This document shows positions 6,207 through 49,539 of a stretch of DNA of 52,752 nt, piece after piece. Within the stretch, counting starts at the first letter, position 1; each line of letters begins with the position of its first letter. The notes beneath the pieces are model-generated. The model was not told the origin of the DNA and ran no database searches. It was given only the letters and a program-made list of their open reading frames with translations. This DNA comes from a virus (lineage: Duplodnaviria; Caudoviricetes): positions 1 to 52,752 of the IMG/VR virus record IMGVR_UViG_3300029985_000054; one strand, 5' to 3'. The position numbers were made by a program, and so were the translations under genes.

Positions 6207-7870
6207 TATGTAATCTCCTGTAATTGGTCAGCCCATAATGCAGTAAATACATAAGGCTTGCATAAATTTAATGTAGTAACTGATCCAGTTTCTAAACTCC
6301 ACTCAATGGAGAAGCCATAACAAAACAATTCTGTTAATCCATCAAAATTATCATTTTGTACATTAAACATTTGCACCATCTGATTCAAGGGTAAAATCCT
6401 CAACCTTCCTAATTCTTCATTAAAAGTAGATACTGTAGGCATTGTAACATTTACTAGCATATCTTGCAATAAACTTTCGGCTAACTTCCTACTTGCATAA
6501 AGAGACATTAAAAATTTAATCCATTCTAAGTTGGTATTACTATTGGTTAAATGTATATTTTGATTATCAATGTTCAACATAGACTTCATTCCTACAACCC
6601 CACTTGTACCATCAACGCCGTTAGCTATATTAATTGCAGTATTTAATAAACCACTATTTTGTAGTATGGCATCTCCATCTATTGCTTCAATATCAAATAG
6701 AGTTTGCAAAGCTAAACCACTTTGTACAAAATCATAAGCTCTAGGAAATATATTATGCGGAGGTGTTGCAATAGAGAATGGCGCATTAGATGCATTATTA
6801 CCTGCATTAGTTGACAAATTAAACTCAGTGAATAATTGATTAAATGTACAATATGCTCTATTTTGGATAACTGCTGTATTTTTCTCTAAATATACTCCTG
6901 TTATACCTATCCCACTTGGTATCCTATCATTATCAAAATTCAAGCTCCAATCTTCATCAGTGTCAAAAAATGTACTTAGTGGGGTAATAGTAAAATCCCC
7001 AGCAGGACTAACATAAAATACACGCTGATATGGGTATAATAACTGCAATATACAGTCTAATTTTGACCCTGTTGGTGGGGTAGTAGCCAAAACCCAAGAA
7101 TTTGCTCCTATAGCACTTCCTGAGGTAGATTGCGGAGTTTTAGTATCTGGTTTTCCAGTAGCAATCTTTTCTGATACAGTATCTGTATATCCCGCAAAAT
7201 ATCTAGTATTGGTTACTGTTTGGCTAATATAGGTCTCTTCAATTAATTGTGTTAATAAATTACCAAATTGAAAATTCTGAGTAAGTATACTGGTTAATTG
7301 TGTACCTTGACTTTTTGAATCTGATTGTGTTTGTACTAATTGACTTCTAGCTAATATATTTGGTAAATAACCTATAGGTATTCTTAACAATGTCCCATCT
7401 ATGTCACTATTAATTTTAATAGGGGCTTCTATAGTTCCAACAATTAATTGTGGGTTATAACTATCGTTTATAAATCCATTTTCAGTGGTATAACTAATAC
7501 GTATTATGTCATTGGCTCTAAATAAATTGCATAATGGATTACTAAATACATACTTACCTCGATTAGAATTAATCTTAACTTCTATAAAACATTGTCCAAT
7601 TGGGCTAAATATATTATTTGATACATTAATCTTGGTAATCGCTATGGGATTATACACATTAATTAGATCAGAATAACTTAAATCATTTTCACCATAATAC
7701 CTAACTTCATCTCCCATATATTGTAATGTGGTTTGTTGTATCCCATTTAATATTTCAAATATAATAGTATCTACCCGTTGACCGTCTCCAAGGGTAAGGT
7801 ATTTACCTAAGTCATTATCTCCATTCGTCATGATAGGTTCTATTGTTATAGTATAGTTTACATTTGCCAT
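6206..7870 (-). CDS. Baseplate hub (Mu gpP/gp44-like)
   Basis: Between the N-like gene and the spike; FYVSPAGDFTI and WSLETGSVTTLNL motifs. Confidence 0.65.
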   Translation of the reverse strand: MANVNYTITIEPIMTNGDNDLGKYLTLGDGQRVDTIIFEILNGIQQTTLQYMGDEVRYYGENDLSYSDLINVYNPIAITKINVSNNIFSPIGQCFIEVKINSNRGKYVFSNPLCNLFRANDIIRISYTTENGFINDSYNPQLIVGTIEAPIKINSDIDGTLLRIPIGYLPNILARSQLVQTQSDSKSQGTQLTSILTQNFQFGNLLTQLIEETYISQTVTNTRYFAGYTDTVSEKIATGKPDTKTPQSTSGSAIGANSWVLATTPPTGSKLDCILQLLYPYQRVFYVSPAGDFTITPLSTFFDTDEDWSLNFDNDRIPSGIGITGVYLEKNTAVIQNRAYCTFNQLFTEFNLSTNAGNNASNAPFSIATPPHNIFPRAYDFVQSGLALQTLFDIEAIDGDAILQNSGLLNTAINIANGVDGTSGVVGMKSMLNIDNQNIHLTNSNTNLEWIKFLMSLYASRKLAESLLQDMLVNVTMPTVSTFNEELGRLRILPLNQMVQMFNVQNDNFDGLTELFCYGFSIEWSLETGSVTTLNLCKPYVFTALWADQLQEIT

Positions 7871-9147
7871 TATTGTCTAATCTTCTTATTCGGTGAAATT
7901 GGTAATATGAGAGGCGTATTTTTAGCTATATAGTTTGTACTAAAAATAACGCTTTTATTTAATTGTAATATAGAATTTGATTGACTAAAATAATCTAAGT
8001 TATTTAAAAAACATATATCAAATAAATTACTATCATACGGAACAATAAATTGTTTAGTAGTACCATAAAACCCATTTAGTAAAGATAAAGACAATTTATT
8101 CATCTGTGATTGTAGGGCAATTAAACTTGTAATAGAATCATATATCGCATTAACATTTATCTGATTAAGTATAGTCATGCAGCTTTCAATGTTAGCATTA
8201 TTGAAAGTTAATATAGTATTTACATCTGTGGGGGTCATGTTGCTATTAAAGTAATATAAAGATGGAATATCATTTGTTGGAGTGGTTATAGTATTATTTA
8301 ATGGAACACTATTAAATCCTGCTGGTTTTAGATTAGACACTAATAATTTAGTAACCACTAAAGAAGTATTAACTGTACTCAATACTGATTTCTGACTATT
8401 CTGGATAGATTGTCTAACACTATTAGTATTACCTTTTGAACCAAAAGCATTTAATAATGCACTAGCTTCTCCCCATATAGTTGCCAGAGAGCTAGTAATC
8501 GTTAGTATTGCAGTAATAGCACCAACTAATGTTATTCCTCCTTGAACCACATTACTAGTATTATAACTTAAGGGCTGTGTACTCATAAAGTTAAACTGAT
8601 ACTGACAAGATCTCCATAATTTAGGATTATGCATTTTCTGTAATGACAATAGTCTTACATTCTGGATAGTCCCTAATATTGGATGCACTAATACATATCT
8701 ATCATCTTCTGATGCTGCTGCTGGATTAGTTATAACATTTAATAAATTATCTAATGCTTGGGTATATGACCCTCCCCAAATAATACCTTGGATACTAAAT
8801 GTTTCTCCATGCCATCCCATATCTTCAAATACATCCGCACCATTTGGGATGCTATGCGTAATAATCTTACTTCTCATGCCATCAGAGATTGCCGTACTTA
8901 CGGTATTAGTACCATAAGGCAATTTCATATTGTCTTGTTGGTTATTGGTAACTCCGAGCAATGATTCTGTTGCCCCAACTAAAGCATCAATATTGAGTAA
9001 CTCATTGCCTAACCTTTTTAAGGTAGATGGCACGGTGTGGAATGCTACACCATTATAAGAACCTGTTTGTATCTGCCAGCTATCTAGCCCAAGGGCGGTA
9101 GCTAATTGTTCAACTGCTGAAGTAATACCTAATACTGATAAAGCCAT
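7870..9147 (-). CDS. Mu gpN-like 'DNA circularization'/tail protein
   Basis: GSYNGVAF...HSIPNGADVFEDMG...FSIQG...LVHPILG matches the DNA_circ_N pattern; follows the tape measure. Confidence 0.8.
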   Translation of the reverse strand: MALSVLGITSAVEQLATALGLDSWQIQTGSYNGVAFHTVPSTLKRLGNELLNIDALVGATESLLGVTNNQQDNMKLPYGTNTVSTAISDGMRSKIITHSIPNGADVFEDMGWHGETFSIQGIIWGGSYTQALDNLLNVITNPAAASEDDRYVLVHPILGTIQNVRLLSLQKMHNPKLWRSCQYQFNFMSTQPLSYNTSNVVQGGITLVGAITAILTITSSLATIWGEASALLNAFGSKGNTNSVRQSIQNSQKSVLSTVNTSLVVTKLLVSNLKPAGFNSVPLNNTITTPTNDIPSLYYFNSNMTPTDVNTILTFNNANIESCMTILNQINVNAIYDSITSLIALQSQMNKLSLSLLNGFYGTTKQFIVPYDSNLFDICFLNNLDYFSQSNSILQLNKSVIFSTNYIAKNTPLILPISPNKKIRQ

Positions 9148-32701: not shown

Positions 32702-33049
32702 TTAAACGACAATCTCCCAATCTACAGCTAATATGTCATGAGGTGTCAATATGCACGGAACTATACCACCTAATTCTTTATAACATAGAGTATGTTCACC
32801 ACACGCAAATATTAATGGCTCTTTAGAATTCTTTCTTTTAAAAGTTATAGCCTTTTCACCATGTGGGGAATTTTTAGATATTTCTGCAATCTCAAATAAT
32901 GTATAATATTTTTTAGTTTCTTTTGGCTTTGCTTTTTCTTTTTTAATATTTTCTTTTTTTGGTGAGCAGTCTGCACATGGGCACTCTGTTGAAAACTCCT
33001 CTAGAAACTCCATAAATTCCGCAAATGCTAACATTTCTTTAGTAATCAT
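32702..33049 (-). CDS. Divergent DUF2829/Tad2-like protein with N-terminal CxCxxC
   Basis: YTLFEIAE...FKRKN...PCILTPHDILAVDWEIVV resembles the Tad2 C-terminal motif. Confidence 0.5.
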   Translation of the reverse strand: MITKEMLAFAEFMEFLEEFSTECPCADCSPKKENIKKEKAKPKETKKYYTLFEIAEISKNSPHGEKAITFKRKNSKEPLIFACGEHTLCYKELGGIVPCILTPHDILAVDWEIVV

Positions 33050-33068: not shown

Positions 33069-33697
33069 TTAATAATATTTCGGTAATTTACACGTTTTTA
33101 TTTCAATTTAGCTTTTTTTCACTGTAGTAGTACTTGAGTTACTAAATATTTTTACTAAATTTACTCTAAAACTATACAGTATTGCACGGGTTTACTACAT
33201 GTGGCACAATATCCCGTATAAACTACCGAAATATTATTAAGTTGGTGGAGAGAGAAGGATTCGAACCTTCGAGATCATCCATAATAAAAATAAAACCCAC
33301 TAGAAGTGGGGTTCACAGTGGGTTAATGTGCTGTACTAACTTAGCATAACGTAAGTGCTTAATGTGCTGTGCTTAAGAAAGTCCCGAGCTGTGCCAAAAT
33401 GTAACTTAAAAGAGTTTTACACTAGTTATCCCATTAACCTACCATAGTTATTTATAATATTATTATAATTCGCAAAACTCTTAAAGAAGTTAGGAGGTCT
33501 ATTGTCCTAGCTTCTTTAAAAGCTCTGGGGGACGGAAGAGGATAATAAATACACTTCCGTCAGTGCCGTACAGTGCTTATATTTAATAGAACATTAACAC
33601 TTAAAAAAAATCTAACACACCCAAACAAACCTAACAATATTTGTGTGCGCTGTCAGCAGTTAAGAAGAAGGATTCAGCAAACTTCCTAACCACTGAC
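33069..33697 (-). ncRNA. Putative structured non-coding transcript/leader
   Basis: Consensus promoter upstream; at least six stems; no ORF of 60 aa or more. Confidence 0.45.
33243..33272 (-). tRNA. tRNA 3' fragment (T-arm + acceptor 3' strand + CCA; Tyr-like); possible attP core
   Basis: TCGAAGGTTCGAATCCTTCTCTCTCCACCA; no matching 5' half found. Confidence 0.7.
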
Positions 33698-33730: not shown

Positions 33731-33962
33731 CTTTATTTGCAATTATTTTGTAATTAATTTATAAACTCAATAATCGCAATGTTTTATCACTGCAACTATG
33801 AGGTTTTTATAGTCAAAAAGCGACGTTTACGGAGCGAAAACACTCACTGAGAATAAGTCGCCTTTACCATTCTTATGTTAACAAAACTCTAAAATCTTAA
33901 CACATACTAATGCATATGTTAAGATTATGCTACCATTTTCGCCGTGTGGGAAAAATGGTTAA

Positions 33963-36213: not shown

Positions 36214-36423
36214 CTACAAAATATCTAATGCTTTTGCAATTATTTTAATCCGTGTTTCATAATCTTCGCTAGGTAAGTTTAATGATTGTAGATATTGCTT
36301 GCAGTTCTCATAATTTATATACTTCACATCCATTAACAATTGTGGTCTAGGGTATTCTTCAGTTTCTATCTGTAATACCTCATCATCTGTAGGATAAGGT
36401 TTGCCAGTTATGTAATTATTCAT
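36214..36423 (-). CDS. Hypothetical protein
   Basis: AAGGAG RBS. Confidence 0.55.
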   Translation of the reverse strand: MNNYITGKPYPTDDEVLQIETEEYPRPQLLMDVKYINYENCKQYLQSLNLPSEDYETRIKIIAKALDIL

Positions 36424-36604
36424 TACTATTCTCCTTATGAAATTTTATTAAATATTCAGCCACTTCTGTTTGATTATTAAGACCCAAAAACAACTTTAAG
36501 TCAGAAAATTGCTTAATAGACTCTTTTTTTATTTTCATGGTTCCCATTCCGTGCTTATCATTGTAAGTTTTAGACCATTTTTGCTGTGCTTTTTGCTTTG
36601 ACAT
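36416..36604 (-). CDS. Small DNA-binding regulator candidate (RHH-like)
   Basis: First gene after the promoter; basic, with beta-helix-helix pattern. Confidence 0.45.
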   Translation of the reverse strand: MSKQKAQQKWSKTYNDKHGMGTMKIKKESIKQFSDLKLFLGLNNQTEVAEYLIKFHKENSNE

Positions 36605-36661: not shown

Positions 36662-36970
36662 ATATATTTCAATTACCCCTTGAATTACCCATGTTTAAAT
36701 AAAATAGTTACTATGCATTACAGTTATTTACCTCACACATGCAAAAATAGTTACCCCTTGAGTTATCCAACAGGTTATAATACGGCATGGCTTGAGAAAA
36801 AGACCAAAAATAGTTCTTTAACAATTTAAAACCAATTAATAATATGCAGTTTAACTATCTAGATATACAACGTGCGCTATAGTATGAGTCTATAGTCGTT
36901 GTGTTTGATGTTCTTTGGATTGCATTAAAAAGTGGTTATTGACAATAAATTTAATTGTAAGGAAGCTATA

Positions 36971-37516
36971 ATGATTAAAAAATACGAATTAATAAAAACA
37001 GATACAAAAATTTGTCTTGGTAAAACTTTATTCAGAATTAAAGCTTTAGTATCTTTTGGTGATGTGACAATTGGTGAGCTTGGGGGATATGTTAGCGACG
37101 AAAATTGCTTACAAAATGAGTTTAAAGGAAAAGTTACGGATAACAGCGTGCTGAATAACAGCATCGTGGATAACAGCATCGTGAATAACAGCGTGGTGGA
37201 TAACAGCGTGGTGAATAACAGCGTGGTGGATAACAGCGTGGTGGATAACAGCGTGGTGAATAAAAAAAGTGAAAAAAATGATGGAGAAATTGCTATGGAA
37301 GATGCGATTGAATTTACTTTTAGTAAAGCATTGAAACTTATTAAAAAAGGATATAGGATATACCGCAAAGGTTGGAATGGTAAAAATATGTATTTAGAAT
37401 TGCAAACTCCTGATGAAAATTCTAAAATGTCATTACCGTATATTTATATGAAAACAGCATGTGGTAATAAAGTGCCGTGGATAGCCTCACAAACTGATTT
37501 ATTAGCAACTGATTAG
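36971..37516 (+). CDS. Pentapeptide-repeat phage protein fused to a DUF2829/Tad2-like domain
   Basis: N-terminal KKYEL...LFRIKAL.SFGDV..GELGGYV; (D/N)NS(V/I)V repeats; C-terminal FSKALK.IKKG.RIYRKGWNGKNMY...PYIYMKT...VPWIASQTDLLATD; internal GGAG RBS with ATG at 37295. Confidence 0.8.
   Translation: MIKKYELIKTDTKICLGKTLFRIKALVSFGDVTIGELGGYVSDENCLQNEFKGKVTDNSVLNNSIVDNSIVNNSVVDNSVVNNSVVDNSVVDNSVVNKKSEKNDGEIAMEDAIEFTFSKALKLIKKGYRIYRKGWNGKNMYLELQTPDENSKMSLPYIYMKTACGNKVPWIASQTDLLATD
37138..37257. repeat. 8 x 15-bp tandem repeat, G(G/A)ATAACAGC(G/A)T(G/C)(G/C)T
   Basis: Directly visible; in frame. Confidence 0.95.
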
Positions 37517-37604
37517 CATGTTCTTGAGTAAGAAATATTGTATAAGTTGCCTATGTTTTGTAGGCAACTGGTGACAAAATGTAACCGTTTGAAAGGAATA
37601 AATT

Positions 37605-37748
37605 ATGTTGTACGATGATTATATTGATAATAAAATGGACAAGTGGAATTGTCGAAACGATGGCAGATGTCAACGTTGTGGTACTGCTGAGTTCGAGTGG
37701 GACATTTATGTTGGTCGTGATGAACAAATTTGTGGAGATTGTGAATGA
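37605..37748 (+). CDS. Small Cys4 zinc-finger protein (47 aa; not in ORF track)
   Basis: AAGGA RBS; MLYDD...CQRCG...ICGDCE. Confidence 0.65.
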   Translation: MLYDDYIDNKMDKWNCRNDGRCQRCGTAEFEWDIYVGRDEQICGDCE

Positions 37749-43249: not shown

Positions 43250-43533
43250 TGCAGAAACTAATTGACAATATACTTATCATAGCGTTGCTGTCAACGATGA
43301 GATTGTTGCAGGGATGCTCTACAGTGCAATATGTAGATAAACCACACTTACCCACCATACCATCATATTTTATGCAGCCATGCGAAGATTTGCCTACTTT
43401 AAACAATGGTTCTCAACGTGAGGTTGTGAAGGTGTTGTTTGCAGATGCTGTAGTTTATAAAGATTGTGCAAATAGGTATAAAGGTCTACAAGATATATTA
43501 ATTAAATTTAAACAAAATATGGAGGGTAAATAA
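43249..43533 (+). CDS. Outer-membrane spanin lipoprotein (Rz1-like)
   Basis: Lipobox LQGC; P-rich IPSYFMQPC..LP; Y.DC..R. Confidence 0.7.
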   Translation: MQKLIDNILIIALLSTMRLLQGCSTVQYVDKPHLPTIPSYFMQPCEDLPTLNNGSQREVVKVLFADAVVYKDCANRYKGLQDILIKFKQNMEGK

Positions 43534-44720
43534 TGAAATATATAAATTCTGGTAAGAATCTAGTAAAAATATGGACTAATGATATAGAAAAAGAAGCAGA
43601 AGAACAGTTGTTAAATTTAAGCAATTTGCCATTTATATACAAACATATTGCTGTAATGCCAGATGTACATGCGGGAAAAGGGTCAACAATAGGTACAGTG
43701 ATAGCTACCAAGGGAGCTGTATGCCCTGCTACAGTTGGGGTTGATTTAGGGTGTGGAATGACTGCATTAAAATTACCTTTTAAGGTTGATGTTATTATGG
43801 ATAAACTTTTATTAATAAGGCATTCTATCGAAAGGGCTGTACCTGTTGGATTTAATAAACATAGTATGATAGACACTAATAGAGGTTCTATTTTAACTGA
43901 TATTCTGGGAGATGATTTAACATGCTTTGACAAAGATAGGGGTAAATTATTAACTAATGCTGGTTTGCAATTAGGAACTTTAGGAGGAGGAAATCATTTT
44001 ATTGAAATTTGTTTTGATGAAAATGCAGATGCTTGGATAGTCTTACATACTGGTAGTAGAAATATAGGTAAAATGATTGCAGAAGTTCATATAAATAAAG
44101 CTAAGGGTTTAATGAAATCTTATTTTATAGATTTACCAGACCCAGATTTATCTTATCTTGTCCAGAATACTTTAGAATTTGATAATTATATACATGATAT
44201 AAATTGGGCTCAAAAATATGCTTATGAAAATAGAGAACATATGCTAAAAAATATTTTAGCAGAAATAGCTTATTATGCGTATGGAGATAAAGATATATCA
44301 AGATTTGACACTTGTTTAAAAATTAGCTGTCACCACAATTATACTACAATGGAAAATCATTTTAATAAGAATGTTTTAGTTACAAGAAAGGGTGCTGTAT
44401 CTGCAAAATTAGGTCAATTAGGTATTATCCCTGGTAGCATGGGTGATAAAAGCTATATCGTTGAGGGATTGGGTAATATTGAGTCTTTTTGCTCCTGTTC
44501 TCATGGAGCAGGTAGAAGAATGTCTAGGAATAAAGCAAAATCAATATTTACTATTGATGATTTAATTAAGCAAACATCTAATGTGGAATGCAGAAAAGAT
44601 GCAGATATAATTGATGAGATTCCTGGAGCATATAAAAATATTGATGAAGTTATGGACAACCAAAAAGATTTAGTAAAAATATTACATACATTAAAACAAA
44701 TTATTTGTATTAAAGGGTAA
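43533..44720 (+). CDS. rtcB: RtcB RNA ligase
   Basis: MPDVHAG, GVDLGCG, GTLGGGNHF, HTGSR, HHNY, RKGA, IPGSMG, SHGAGR and DEIPGAYK motifs. Confidence 0.97.
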   Translation: MKYINSGKNLVKIWTNDIEKEAEEQLLNLSNLPFIYKHIAVMPDVHAGKGSTIGTVIATKGAVCPATVGVDLGCGMTALKLPFKVDVIMDKLLLIRHSIERAVPVGFNKHSMIDTNRGSILTDILGDDLTCFDKDRGKLLTNAGLQLGTLGGGNHFIEICFDENADAWIVLHTGSRNIGKMIAEVHINKAKGLMKSYFIDLPDPDLSYLVQNTLEFDNYIHDINWAQKYAYENREHMLKNILAEIAYYAYGDKDISRFDTCLKISCHHNYTTMENHFNKNVLVTRKGAVSAKLGQLGIIPGSMGDKSYIVEGLGNIESFCSCSHGAGRRMSRNKAKSIFTIDDLIKQTSNVECRKDADIIDEIPGAYKNIDEVMDNQKDLVKILHTLKQIICIKG

Positions 44721-48029: not shown

Positions 48030-48541
48030 GATATATGTGTCTTTTTAATATATCCTTGTCTCGATAAGAATTGATATAATCTCTGGAATAGTGCGAACGT
48101 TTTCGAGACTTAAACTTTTCGGGAATGACCCTATCCGCACTAATTTAATATTAGTACATTATAACAGTTAGTAAAGTTAATAATATTTATATATTTTAAG
48201 TAGCTGATTATGCTGGAATGATTTATTTTTTATATGTTATTGAAGAGATGAGATAGGAGATAGTCGCACCAACTTGGGACTATCCATGCAAGTTGGCACT
48301 GTTGGGTCTACGTGACGGTCAGGATTATATCATAGTTAGTTAAGTAATTTCTGAATTAATTTATAATATTTTCCGTTACGGGTTTTTCCGCTTCCAGAAT
48401 TAAATATGGAGTATTTGCAGATATAATGACATGGCTGTCAGCCATGTGGTATAATTATATTTTAACACATATTATAAAGGCGAATTAATATTCCCCACAT
48501 GGAGAAAATGGTTAACTTAGGGTATAAAATCTACAAGTTAA

Positions 48542-49043: not shown

Positions 49044-49539
49044 TTTCTAAAATACCTTTTAATTTCTTATGTACATATTGTAGATATTTATAGATAAATA
49101 TTCCAGTATAACCCACCATCATTAAGTCTACGATTATATAAAACGTTTGCTTAGCATAATTTGTCGGTAAATCTACAAAATCTTCCCATGTGTAATATAT
49201 ATTGCGATAAAATAGGAACATACCCAAAAAGAAAAAGAATAAGCCACCAATCATATATGCGCAAAAATGTTTTTTATCTAAATAATCATGAACGACTTTT
49301 ATTTTGAATAATGTAGGAACAATAAAAATTATAGAAGCAATCGCAGTAATCATATTTATAGGTTCATATGCCCACCAATACGTTGTGTGATTAGCAAACA
49401 TTGTCCACCTAATTGCAGAATACCATCCGAACATTGTTGCGCCGAGAATATTATATATAATTGAAATCATTGTGTACCTTTTAAAAATTATGGACTGCCA
49501 AGAATTACTTGACAGCTTCTTATTATGGTATATATCCAC
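49036..49539 (-). CDS. 4-TM membrane protein
   Basis: Four hydrophobic segments. Confidence 0.55.
   Translation of the reverse strand: MDIYHNKKLSSNSWQSIIFKRYTMISIIYNILGATMFGWYSAIRWTMFANHTTYWWAYEPINMITAIASIIFIVPTLFKIKVVHDYLDKKHFCAYMIGGLFFFFLGMFLFYRNIYYTWEDFVDLPTNYAKQTFYIIVDLMMVGYTGIFIYKYLQYVHKKLKGILESD

Follow-up and report, generated by a model that had tools for sequence, protein, structure and literature searches.

Palindromes at the border of a Tad2-like gene cassette in a phage genome, and their likeness to palindromes within Bro-N, RhuM and DinD-like genes

The DNA considered here, called the window throughout, is a whole IMG/VR virus record (IMGVR_UViG_3300029985_000054; Duplodnaviria, Caudoviricetes) of 52,752 bp with a G+C content of 32%, classed as linear and given a CheckV completeness of 100. 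Its structural genes lie on the minus strand up to ca. 29.6 kb, a leftward replication module that includes an IstB/DnaC-like gene occupies 33.9-36.6 kb, and a rightward early operon begins at ca. 36.9 kb. The first rightward gene encodes a Tad2-like protein, and is followed by genes for a gp5.9-like RecBCD inhibitor, a DUF1351 protein and an AAA_24 protein (Pfam). Two overlapping palindromes, P1 and P2, stand immediately after the Tad2-like gene (Table 1). A sequence-only reading of this DNA had proposed that they, together with similar palindromes elsewhere in the record, are orphan copies of sites located inside RhuM, Bro-N and DinD-type genes and act as decoys for DNA-binding proteins of host defense islands or prophages. 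P1 is present exactly where that reading drew it, as a perfect 9+7+9 inverted repeat. The P2 site is there as well, but only 8 of its 11 pairs are complementary, and its core (GGTGACA-AAA-TGTAACC) is paired at 6 of 7 positions.

The Tad2-like gene and P1 come and go together. One contig from each of two lake-water runs of the same study (X3 and X4) joins position 36937 to 37574, skipping 636 nt, within flanks that differ from the window by 1-2 letters and are ca. 98-99% identical to it, whereas a right junction of the cassette-bearing type is present in a peat run (X2) and in a second lake-water study (X6). Because these contigs bridge 36937 and 37574, the Tad2-like gene and P1 constitute an indel cassette between near-identical phages. 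The cassette, which holds no open reading frame (ORF) besides the Tad2-like one, is bordered by the two copies of an imperfect 8-nt direct repeat. Its right border (37573|37574) falls 4 nt past P1, which lies just inside it, and cuts the left arm of P2; a stem-loop is thus found at the border of an indel between near-identical phages. In a more distant relative (L082) homology to the window starts just upstream of the Cys-rich ORF and runs rightwards, with different genes upstream; this relative has neither a Tad2 gene nor a hairpin.

Joining the two borders has a specific effect on P2. In the rebuilt cassette-less form all seven pairs that flank the AAA spacer match, whereas one of them is broken in the window, so that without the cassette, which interrupts it, P2 is a perfect 7+3+7 palindrome. 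By our own estimate, a deletion would leave such a palindrome by chance in about 1/256 of cases, and insertion is therefore the likelier direction. The joined 17-nt core is identical at 16 of 17 positions to the palindrome in one Bro-N gene (L589), and the 35-nt stretch around P2 agrees with that in another (L254) at 23-24 of 35 positions. In the window, P2 combines a left arm of the GTGACA type, as in L583, with a right arm of the GTAAC type, as in L589, L254 and L606; arms of two different types fit a crossover between two such palindromes. When up to 3 mismatches were allowed, a pattern search of the window for the core found 5 sites versus 3.1 expected, i.e. chance level. A relic of a Bro-N gene around P2 was ruled out, since the record holds no Bro-N signal and an in-frame stop lies directly upstream.

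Two familiar kinds of mobile cassette were considered and rejected. An IS200/IS605-type or other hairpin-dependent transposable element does not fit, as far as the cassette itself goes, because the palindrome at the left cassette end (paired at 6 of 7 positions) is unlike P1 and the sole ORF is Tad2-like; for an integron attC site, the size, end structure and gene content are all wrong.

The gene carried by the cassette is well supported. Its match to PF11195 scores 77 bits against a gathering cut-off of 25 and spans profile positions 2-69 of 73. The probable start is the ATG at 36971, which follows the sequence AAGGAAG; an alternative GTG at 36932 falls outside the cassette. The gene ends with TAG at the position of the last conserved Trp, where ten relatives have a Trp codon (TGG) and then 3-5 more codons, and the next in-frame stop is a TAA at 37529-37531. 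Because TAG terminates 6 of the 67 long ORFs of the record, we take it as a genuine stop; a TGG-to-TAG change probably removed the last five residues. Its relatives share the C-terminal domain only (best 80 of 95 viral-contig matches, 17 genome-contig matches and best 80 of 147 metagenome-contig matches). Upstream of that domain, a tandem repeat of 15 nt in eight copies (37123-37287) encodes a V/I-V-D/N-N-S pentapeptide. Two further Tad2-like ORFs fall below the cut-off of 25 bits: one on the minus strand of the window at 32702-33049 (14.8 bits, E 0.043), and one at 7676-7897 of a viral contig (L351; 19.9 bits, E 0.0011), ca. 230 nt upstream of a palindrome array.

P1 is intergenic, and the reading frame through it contains a stop. 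It is the sole match to its own pattern in the window when up to 3 mismatches are allowed (0.01 expected), and its half-site occurs 14 times versus 13.8 expected, which is no enrichment. The sequence-only reading had named two ordinary explanations that would undo its proposal, a terminator or an operator of a phage-encoded regulator, and neither fits P1. A canonical intrinsic terminator is ruled out because no U-tract follows the stem on either strand (GGTGACAAAATG on the plus strand, TATACAATATTT on the minus strand), and P1 is not among the eight terminator-like sites in 32-50 kb. A repeated operator of a phage regulator is ruled out because P1 is single-copy with half-sites at chance level. 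Neither P1 nor P2 is overlapped by a strong promoter, the nearest candidate being a 9/12 match at 37589-37616, and no promoter-like site with at least 10 of 12 matches was found at 36.9-37.6 kb.

Searches with P1 itself returned little. Exact copies numbered zero among viral contigs; no close relatives that would permit covariation analysis were found, the phage collection yielding two records at 8% cover; and a 60-nt blastn query gave two matches, at chance level. In bacterial genomes the exact sequence occurs at 17 loci, namely 15 actinobacterial ones, one terminator-like hairpin in a member of the Flavobacteriaceae and one metagenome-assembled genome of the Anaerolineae; we take these matches as coincidence. 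The actinobacterial copies (loci L087-L102) are 10+5+10 palindromes between divergent genes in 15 genomes, and probably serve as operators for the regulator next to them, which is TetR-like by eye.

The more informative comparison is with palindromes that lie inside genes. We analyzed RhuM loci L200 and L203-L231 and Bro-N loci L232-L261 and L579-L608; RhuM (PF13310) was detected in one phylum sample (59 of 151 genomes), and Bro-N (PF02498) in two (27 of 121 and 39 of 151). All 30 RhuM loci carry a palindrome that encodes the segment just before the conserved ..DGK, with the consensus S/A-V/T-V...T-T/V-A/Q. In an alignment of 27 of these genes (A1), 90.1% of the cells are paired, 11 of 12 pairs have changed on both sides, and none of 500 shuffles reaches the observed level of covariation. 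The RhuM-type class is a 25-27-bp dyad with a single-nucleotide center, 11-12 co-varying pairs and outer arms of the form (C)AGTT..AACT(G) or the same swapped. Among the first 30 Bro-N loci, 15 have arms of at least 10 nt at nucleotides 110-150 of the domain. A DinD-like subgroup of Bro-N has the palindrome ACCATTTT...AAAATGGT, and a subgroup that we call 'TNC' has a ACAAATTGT core within CAGTTG/CAACTG-type outer arms, giving a dyad of ca. 31 bp; in the 'TNC' alignment (A3), 82.5% of the cells are paired and 13 of 14 pairs have changed on both sides. Bro-N-superfamily genes therefore contain a co-varying palindrome of 25-35 bp whose position is homologous across their N-terminal domains, and the palindrome types that the sequence-only reading had ascribed to RhuM, Bro-N and DinD-type genes do exist. 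The encoded residue pairs mirror the symmetry of the DNA (R-R, K-L, A-A, E-S, S-E). No solved structure was found by sequence for the DinD-like N-domain. The literature searched, parts of which were available to us, contained no description of these palindromes in Bro-N, RhuM and DinD-type genes, nor of the abundant free-standing copies.

Models built from the RhuM palindromes (R1, from A1), the DinD-type palindromes (R2, from A2) and the 'TNC' Bro-N palindromes (R3, from A3) were used to score sites in the window. The P1 region (37543-37572) matches R1 at 20.0 bits (E 0.013), full-length and in register, and is the best R1 match in the window; none of at least 20 bits occurs in 874 kb of unrelated phage DNA. 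The RhuM-type geometry that had been ascribed to P1 is thus borne out. In this register P1 has nine Watson-Crick and two G-T pairs, with the outermost pair mismatched. It lies outside any RhuM frame, as the record has no PF13310, and is at most a free-standing look-alike.

The three DinD-type copies claimed for the record fared unequally. The site at 33932 is a clear and strong match to R2 (Table 1), with the reservation that A2 was chosen by exact outer arms and R2 thus fixes the arms by construction; it begins 4 nt past the stop of the IstB/DnaC-like gene, and its interior is only partly symmetric. The copy at 48490 is marginal, and that at 32853 is not detected by R2 at E ≤ 10. A test of the three-copy pattern itself is circular, because it was derived from those copies. 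The 'arrays' described around the first two copies did not hold up as one repeated motif: they are two adjacent, unlike hairpins (the 33932-33959 site and an A+T-rich one at 33893-33926) and a single 8+3+8 palindrome. The latter, which is perfect and spans 48429-48447, overlaps the region's best plus-strand promoter-like site (48426-48455; 11/12, extended -10), and looks like an operator on that promoter.

For P2 the likeness to Bro-N stands for individual genes, as seen in the restored core, but not for the general model: the region 37561-37595 matches R3 at 12.2 bits, with E 2.2 and rank 4. Overall, family-type resemblance is strong for the 33932 site, moderate for P1 and member-specific for P2.

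Palindromes of these types are also common outside genes. We scanned viral contigs for the DinD-type outer arms separated by a 10-14-nt interior (loci L262-L374), and at least 113 contigs matched. Among the matches listed, 86 of 113 have a 12-nt interior and 63 of 113 have at least four of six interior pairs, whereas a shuffled-arm control across the whole collection gave 88 contigs, only 7 of which reach that level. Relative to shuffled arms, phage DNA is thus enriched in DinD-type sites. Only 4 of the 113 matches listed lie inside DinD-like ORFs, the other 109 having no DinD-like ORF within 900 nt, and a Bro-N gene is present in only 3 of 50 records that bear such sites. The free-standing sites mostly occupy short gaps between co-directional genes, and tandem arrays of two to four unlike 28-bp palindromes also occur (L351, 8128-8251; L350, 1655-1746; L291, 5941-6065; and L278/L306). 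RhuM-type arms gave a noisier result, with 23 of 119 matches having at least three consecutive interior pairs, some in RhuM-like ORFs and some free-standing. Free-standing palindromes form a real, enriched class in phage DNA. A conserved neighbor gene was sought for the DinD-type sites and rejected: 94 neighboring ORFs comprise four RadC-like, four recombinase or integrase, and otherwise diverse proteins. An Rfam search of 12 loci with DinD-type sites gave only sub-threshold miRNA-like matches, on the hairpins.

The pattern of mismatches and changes bears on whether the symmetry matters in DNA or in RNA. Among 30 free-standing palindromes with a clear orientation from the genes on either side (a further 36 without one were left out of the count), G-U-type mismatches are sense-compatible in 15 cases and antisense-compatible in 15; the corresponding figures for RhuM genes are 4 and 4. 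The dyad symmetry often extends to the center of the palindrome, and related phages show paired changes that include the central pair (L278 versus L306; L298 versus L320 versus L365). The absence of strand bias, the central symmetry and the paired changes together point to a dyad at the duplex level, or to templated symmetrization, rather than to an RNA stem.

Templated correction of quasi-palindromes during replication would yield symmetry to the center and paired changes without strand bias. P1 and P2 might accordingly have no function at all: they could be scars of former genes of the Bro-N type, or have arisen by chance, and such correction alone would keep them symmetric, their resemblance to gene palindromes being partly post hoc. 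The symmetry just described is what this account expects; the resemblances were sought after the fact; P2 is already degraded; and perfect stems of at least 9 bp are not rare in the window, with 10 found (nested ones counted) versus 6.3 ± 3.0 in Markov shuffles, an over-representation that is not striking. However, none of the 109 free-standing DinD-type sites among the matches listed has a DinD-like remnant alongside. Their large excess over gene-borne sites, their enrichment over the control and the arrays of unlike palindromes speak for elements that are being maintained, not for scars in decay, and we hold the neutral account to be improbable.

P1 is the exception to the lack of strand bias. 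Its next two inner pairs on the plus strand are T-G and then G-T, and each of these non-Watson-Crick pairs could form G-U on the sense strand but not on the antisense strand. The local fold at P1 and P2 is moderately unusual (z -2.46 on the plus strand, -2.98 on the minus strand), and the sense strand folds locally into a strong hairpin, with a minimum free energy of -26.2 kcal/mol over 121 nt and 2 of 200 shuffles equally stable. P1 also lies 28 nt past the TAG stop and 13 nt past the probable ancestral TAA. The Tad2 message could thus carry P1 as a stem-loop at its 3' end, serving as a stabilizer against 3' exonucleases or as a processing site, as inter-cistronic hairpins do in early operons of other phages, with read-through allowed and the RhuM likeness accidental; the missing U-tract is consistent with such a non-polar effect on the early genes. 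Against this, no RNA run was found to contain the region, ten other Tad2-like genes have no comparable downstream hairpin, the class as a whole lacks sense-strand bias, and the in-register match to the RhuM model would need a chance event of roughly 1-5%. Nor did Rfam match any family, either at the gathering score over the whole window or by E-value over 33-38 kb. We give an RNA role little credence.

Alternatively, the palindromes may be binding sites for Bro-N-superfamily proteins supplied in trans by the host, defense islands or prophages, serving as decoys, sensors or borrowed operators, with the copy inside each gene acting as its own operator. Every subfamily has its own conserved outer arms within its own gene, and the same arm types recur free-standing in phages far above the shuffled-arm control, nearly always away from a DinD-like ORF. 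Since so few site-bearing records hold a Bro-N gene, any partner must act in trans. The window fits this pattern, with three site types and, as the sequence-only reading had noted, none of the genes: neither PF02498 nor PF13310 has a match in the record at E ≤ 1. The symmetry indicates duplex DNA rather than RNA, the sites lie among anti-defense genes (Tad2-like and gp5.9-like), and RhuM genes are enriched next to phase-variable Type I restriction loci, according to the part of the source available (PMC9881135). On the other side, a dimeric binder does not account for variable inner arms that are symmetric down to the central pair; P2 has been disrupted by the cassette, unlike a maintained decoy site, and a single copy of P1 would be a weak sponge. 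P2 also fails to reach significance against the general Bro-N model, the DinD-type copies other than 33932 are marginal or undetected, and the diverse neighbors of orphan sites include no recurrent partner. The position of P1 and P2 on an indel border, which the sequence-only reading had not seen, gives a simpler account of their presence than decoys do. We consider trans-acting binding unlikely, though a serious possibility; decoy action or titration would be a further, purely conjectural step. In its full form the proposal would have Bro-N, RhuM and DinD-like genes each hold a palindrome recognized by their own product, while phages without the genes scatter copies among their early and anti-defense genes to capture, mislead or listen to host or prophage proteins; at least three types in this record (P1, P2 and 33932) would then form a nucleic-acid counter-defense beside the Tad2 sponge. 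This full form strikes us as distinctly unlikely.

We tentatively prefer to see P1 and P2 as dyad-symmetric, double-stranded DNA joints between phage gene modules, located at cassette borders. What is shown, and what this reading starts from, is the indel with its borders, the palindrome restored in the cassette-less form, and the likeness to the gene families. The leader of the rightward early operon would originally have contained P2 as a perfect 7+3+7 palindrome. The 636-bp cassette, consisting of the Tad2-like anti-Thoeris gene and its 3' palindrome P1, would have recombined into the left arm of P2 and left a hybrid, imperfect P2 behind. Both palindromes would belong to the wider 25-35-bp class that has a fixed place in Bro-N, RhuM and DinD-type genes and also occurs intergenically in phages, and these shared, orientation-free short sequences would be preferred crossover points for the gain and loss of cassettes. 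Insertion would not silence the early genes downstream, since no U-tract follows P1. We infer that the palindromes cause recombination and are kept for that reason.

Several points weigh against such joints. They are drawn from a single recombination event, both bridging contigs come from one study, and the cassette-less joint was rebuilt in a script from contig alignment coordinates rather than read directly from the contigs. The left crossover has no convincing palindrome of the same type, only one paired at 6 of 7 positions. Homology runs through the DinD-type palindromes in several groups of related phages (L267/L276/L317, L278/L306, L305/L342 and L310/L348), so these palindromes are not regular breakpoints; only in a radC-linked group does homology end ca. 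20 nt past the palindrome, and those comparisons are non-independent. A crossover role also leaves the outer-arm match to Bro-N-superfamily genes unexplained, and the sense-strand G-U-compatible inner pairs of P1 lean towards an RNA role for this one palindrome.

Other features of the record lie apart from the cassette. Two sets of direct repeats occupy the divergent control region that separates the leftward and rightward early operons: TTACCCCTTGA[A/G]TTA[C/T]CCA in two copies (36673-36691 and 36751-36769), and AAAATAGTT(AC) in three (36701-36711, 36744-36754 and 36805-36815). They could be sites for a small protein encoded at 36416-36604 and judged by eye to have a ribbon-helix-helix-like fold. 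An RtcB RNA ligase is encoded at 43533-44720 (PF01139, E 3e-117), which suggests repair of tRNA or other RNA cleaved by the host. No tRNA or tmRNA was found in the record. The minus strand at 33243-33285 resembles a tRNA in its 3' part, with a T-arm, an acceptor strand and CCA, although ARAGORN calls no tRNA there. Beside it, in a 900-bp non-coding region, is a 26-nt inverted repeat (33069-33240), 92% complementary, with its arms 120 nt apart. The tRNA-like stretch and the inverted repeat could be a remnant of an attachment site or a small RNA; Pfam detected no integrase among the ORFs scanned.

Table 1. Positions of the cassette, the palindromes and associated features in the window
Feature	Position	Strand	Description
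DinD-type palindrome ACCATTTT-N12-AAAATGGT	33932..33959		R2 match at 33929-33962, 33.6 bits, E 7.7e-8
Imperfect 8-nt direct repeat, left copy (AAGTGGTT)	36930..36937		Cassette border
Indel cassette, 636 bp	36938..37573	+	Tad2-like gene with its own ribosome-binding site, and P1
Weak imperfect palindrome TGACAAT-N7-ATTGTAA, 6/7	36940..36960		Left cassette end; read by eye
Tad2-like ORF	36971..37516	+	PF11195, E 1.7e-21, residues 129-194
P1 palindrome, AGTTGCCTA-N7-TAGGCAACT	37545..37569		Perfect inverted repeat, 7-nt spacer
P2 palindrome, as first drawn	37566..37590		Core 37570-37586
Imperfect 8-nt direct repeat, right copy (AACTGGTG)	37566-37573		Cassette border
Cys-rich (zinc-ribbon-like) ORF, 47 aa	37605..37748	+	First gene after the P2 palindrome in cassette-less relatives
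Marginal DinD-type-like site, partial match	48488..48509	-	R2 11.1 bits, E 0.54
Second-best RhuM-type-like palindrome	49495..49515	-	R1 13.9 bits, E 0.53; junction of two minus-strand genes; terminator-like

The presence or absence of a Tad2-like anti-Thoeris gene between near-identical phages, with base-exact borders, is a clean case of the movement of a counter-defense gene. If a common binder of the palindromes exists, it would connect the intergenic DNA of phages, in a way open to testing, with little-understood genes of restriction and defense islands; if the palindromes are only self-symmetrizing recombination joints, they would still help to explain phage mosaicism.

Among phage cassettes, stem-loops at the borders are an already known kind of feature, whereas their link to palindromes in Bro-N, RhuM and DinD genes was not found in the literature searched, as far as its available parts extend. 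In the morons of lambdoid phages, a promoter and a factor-independent terminator stand on either side of an accessory gene. The Tad2 cassette resembles them as one accessory gene that is placed within a conserved operon and has a ribosome-binding site of its own and, on its 3' side, a hairpin; unlike them, it has no detected promoter, and the hairpin does not qualify as a canonical terminator. The PeSL (promoter-early stem-loop) cassettes of T4-type phages combine a strong sigma-70 promoter with an efficiently terminating stem-loop, as set out in the available part of that report (Arbiol et al. 2010, PMC2839356). Here too, short conserved stem-loop motifs lie between accessory genes and at the ends of indels between near-identical phages, and small gene cassettes would be shuffled by recombination from one motif to another; however, P1 and P2 have no accompanying promoter and P1 has no U-tract, and motifs of their type match palindromes in Bro-N-superfamily ORFs, which the same part of the report does not mention for PeSLs.

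Short phage palindromes also matter to host defense at the DNA level: those of phages and plasmids trigger the Lamassu/DdmABC system, as single-strand hairpins, according to the accessible part of the source (Robins et al. 2024, PMC11707656). There, the host senses the palindromes, to the cost of the phage or plasmid that carries them, and that part describes no class shared with Bro-N genes; the likeness is one of description only. Probable operators at divergent promoters of TetR-type regulators in Streptomyces share the exact arms and 7-nt spacer of P1 at 15 actinobacterial loci, but they belong to unrelated, high-G+C organisms and have 10+5+10 arms, and the regulator is TetR-like by eye. 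In phage lambda, the iterons of the replication origin lie within gene O, whose protein binds them, and this binding has been demonstrated. The free-standing palindromes described here differ in that they occur in genomes without the gene and are known from sequence alone; lambda O nevertheless supplies the precedent that a 'self-operator' reading needs, a protein whose DNA site lies in its own coding sequence.

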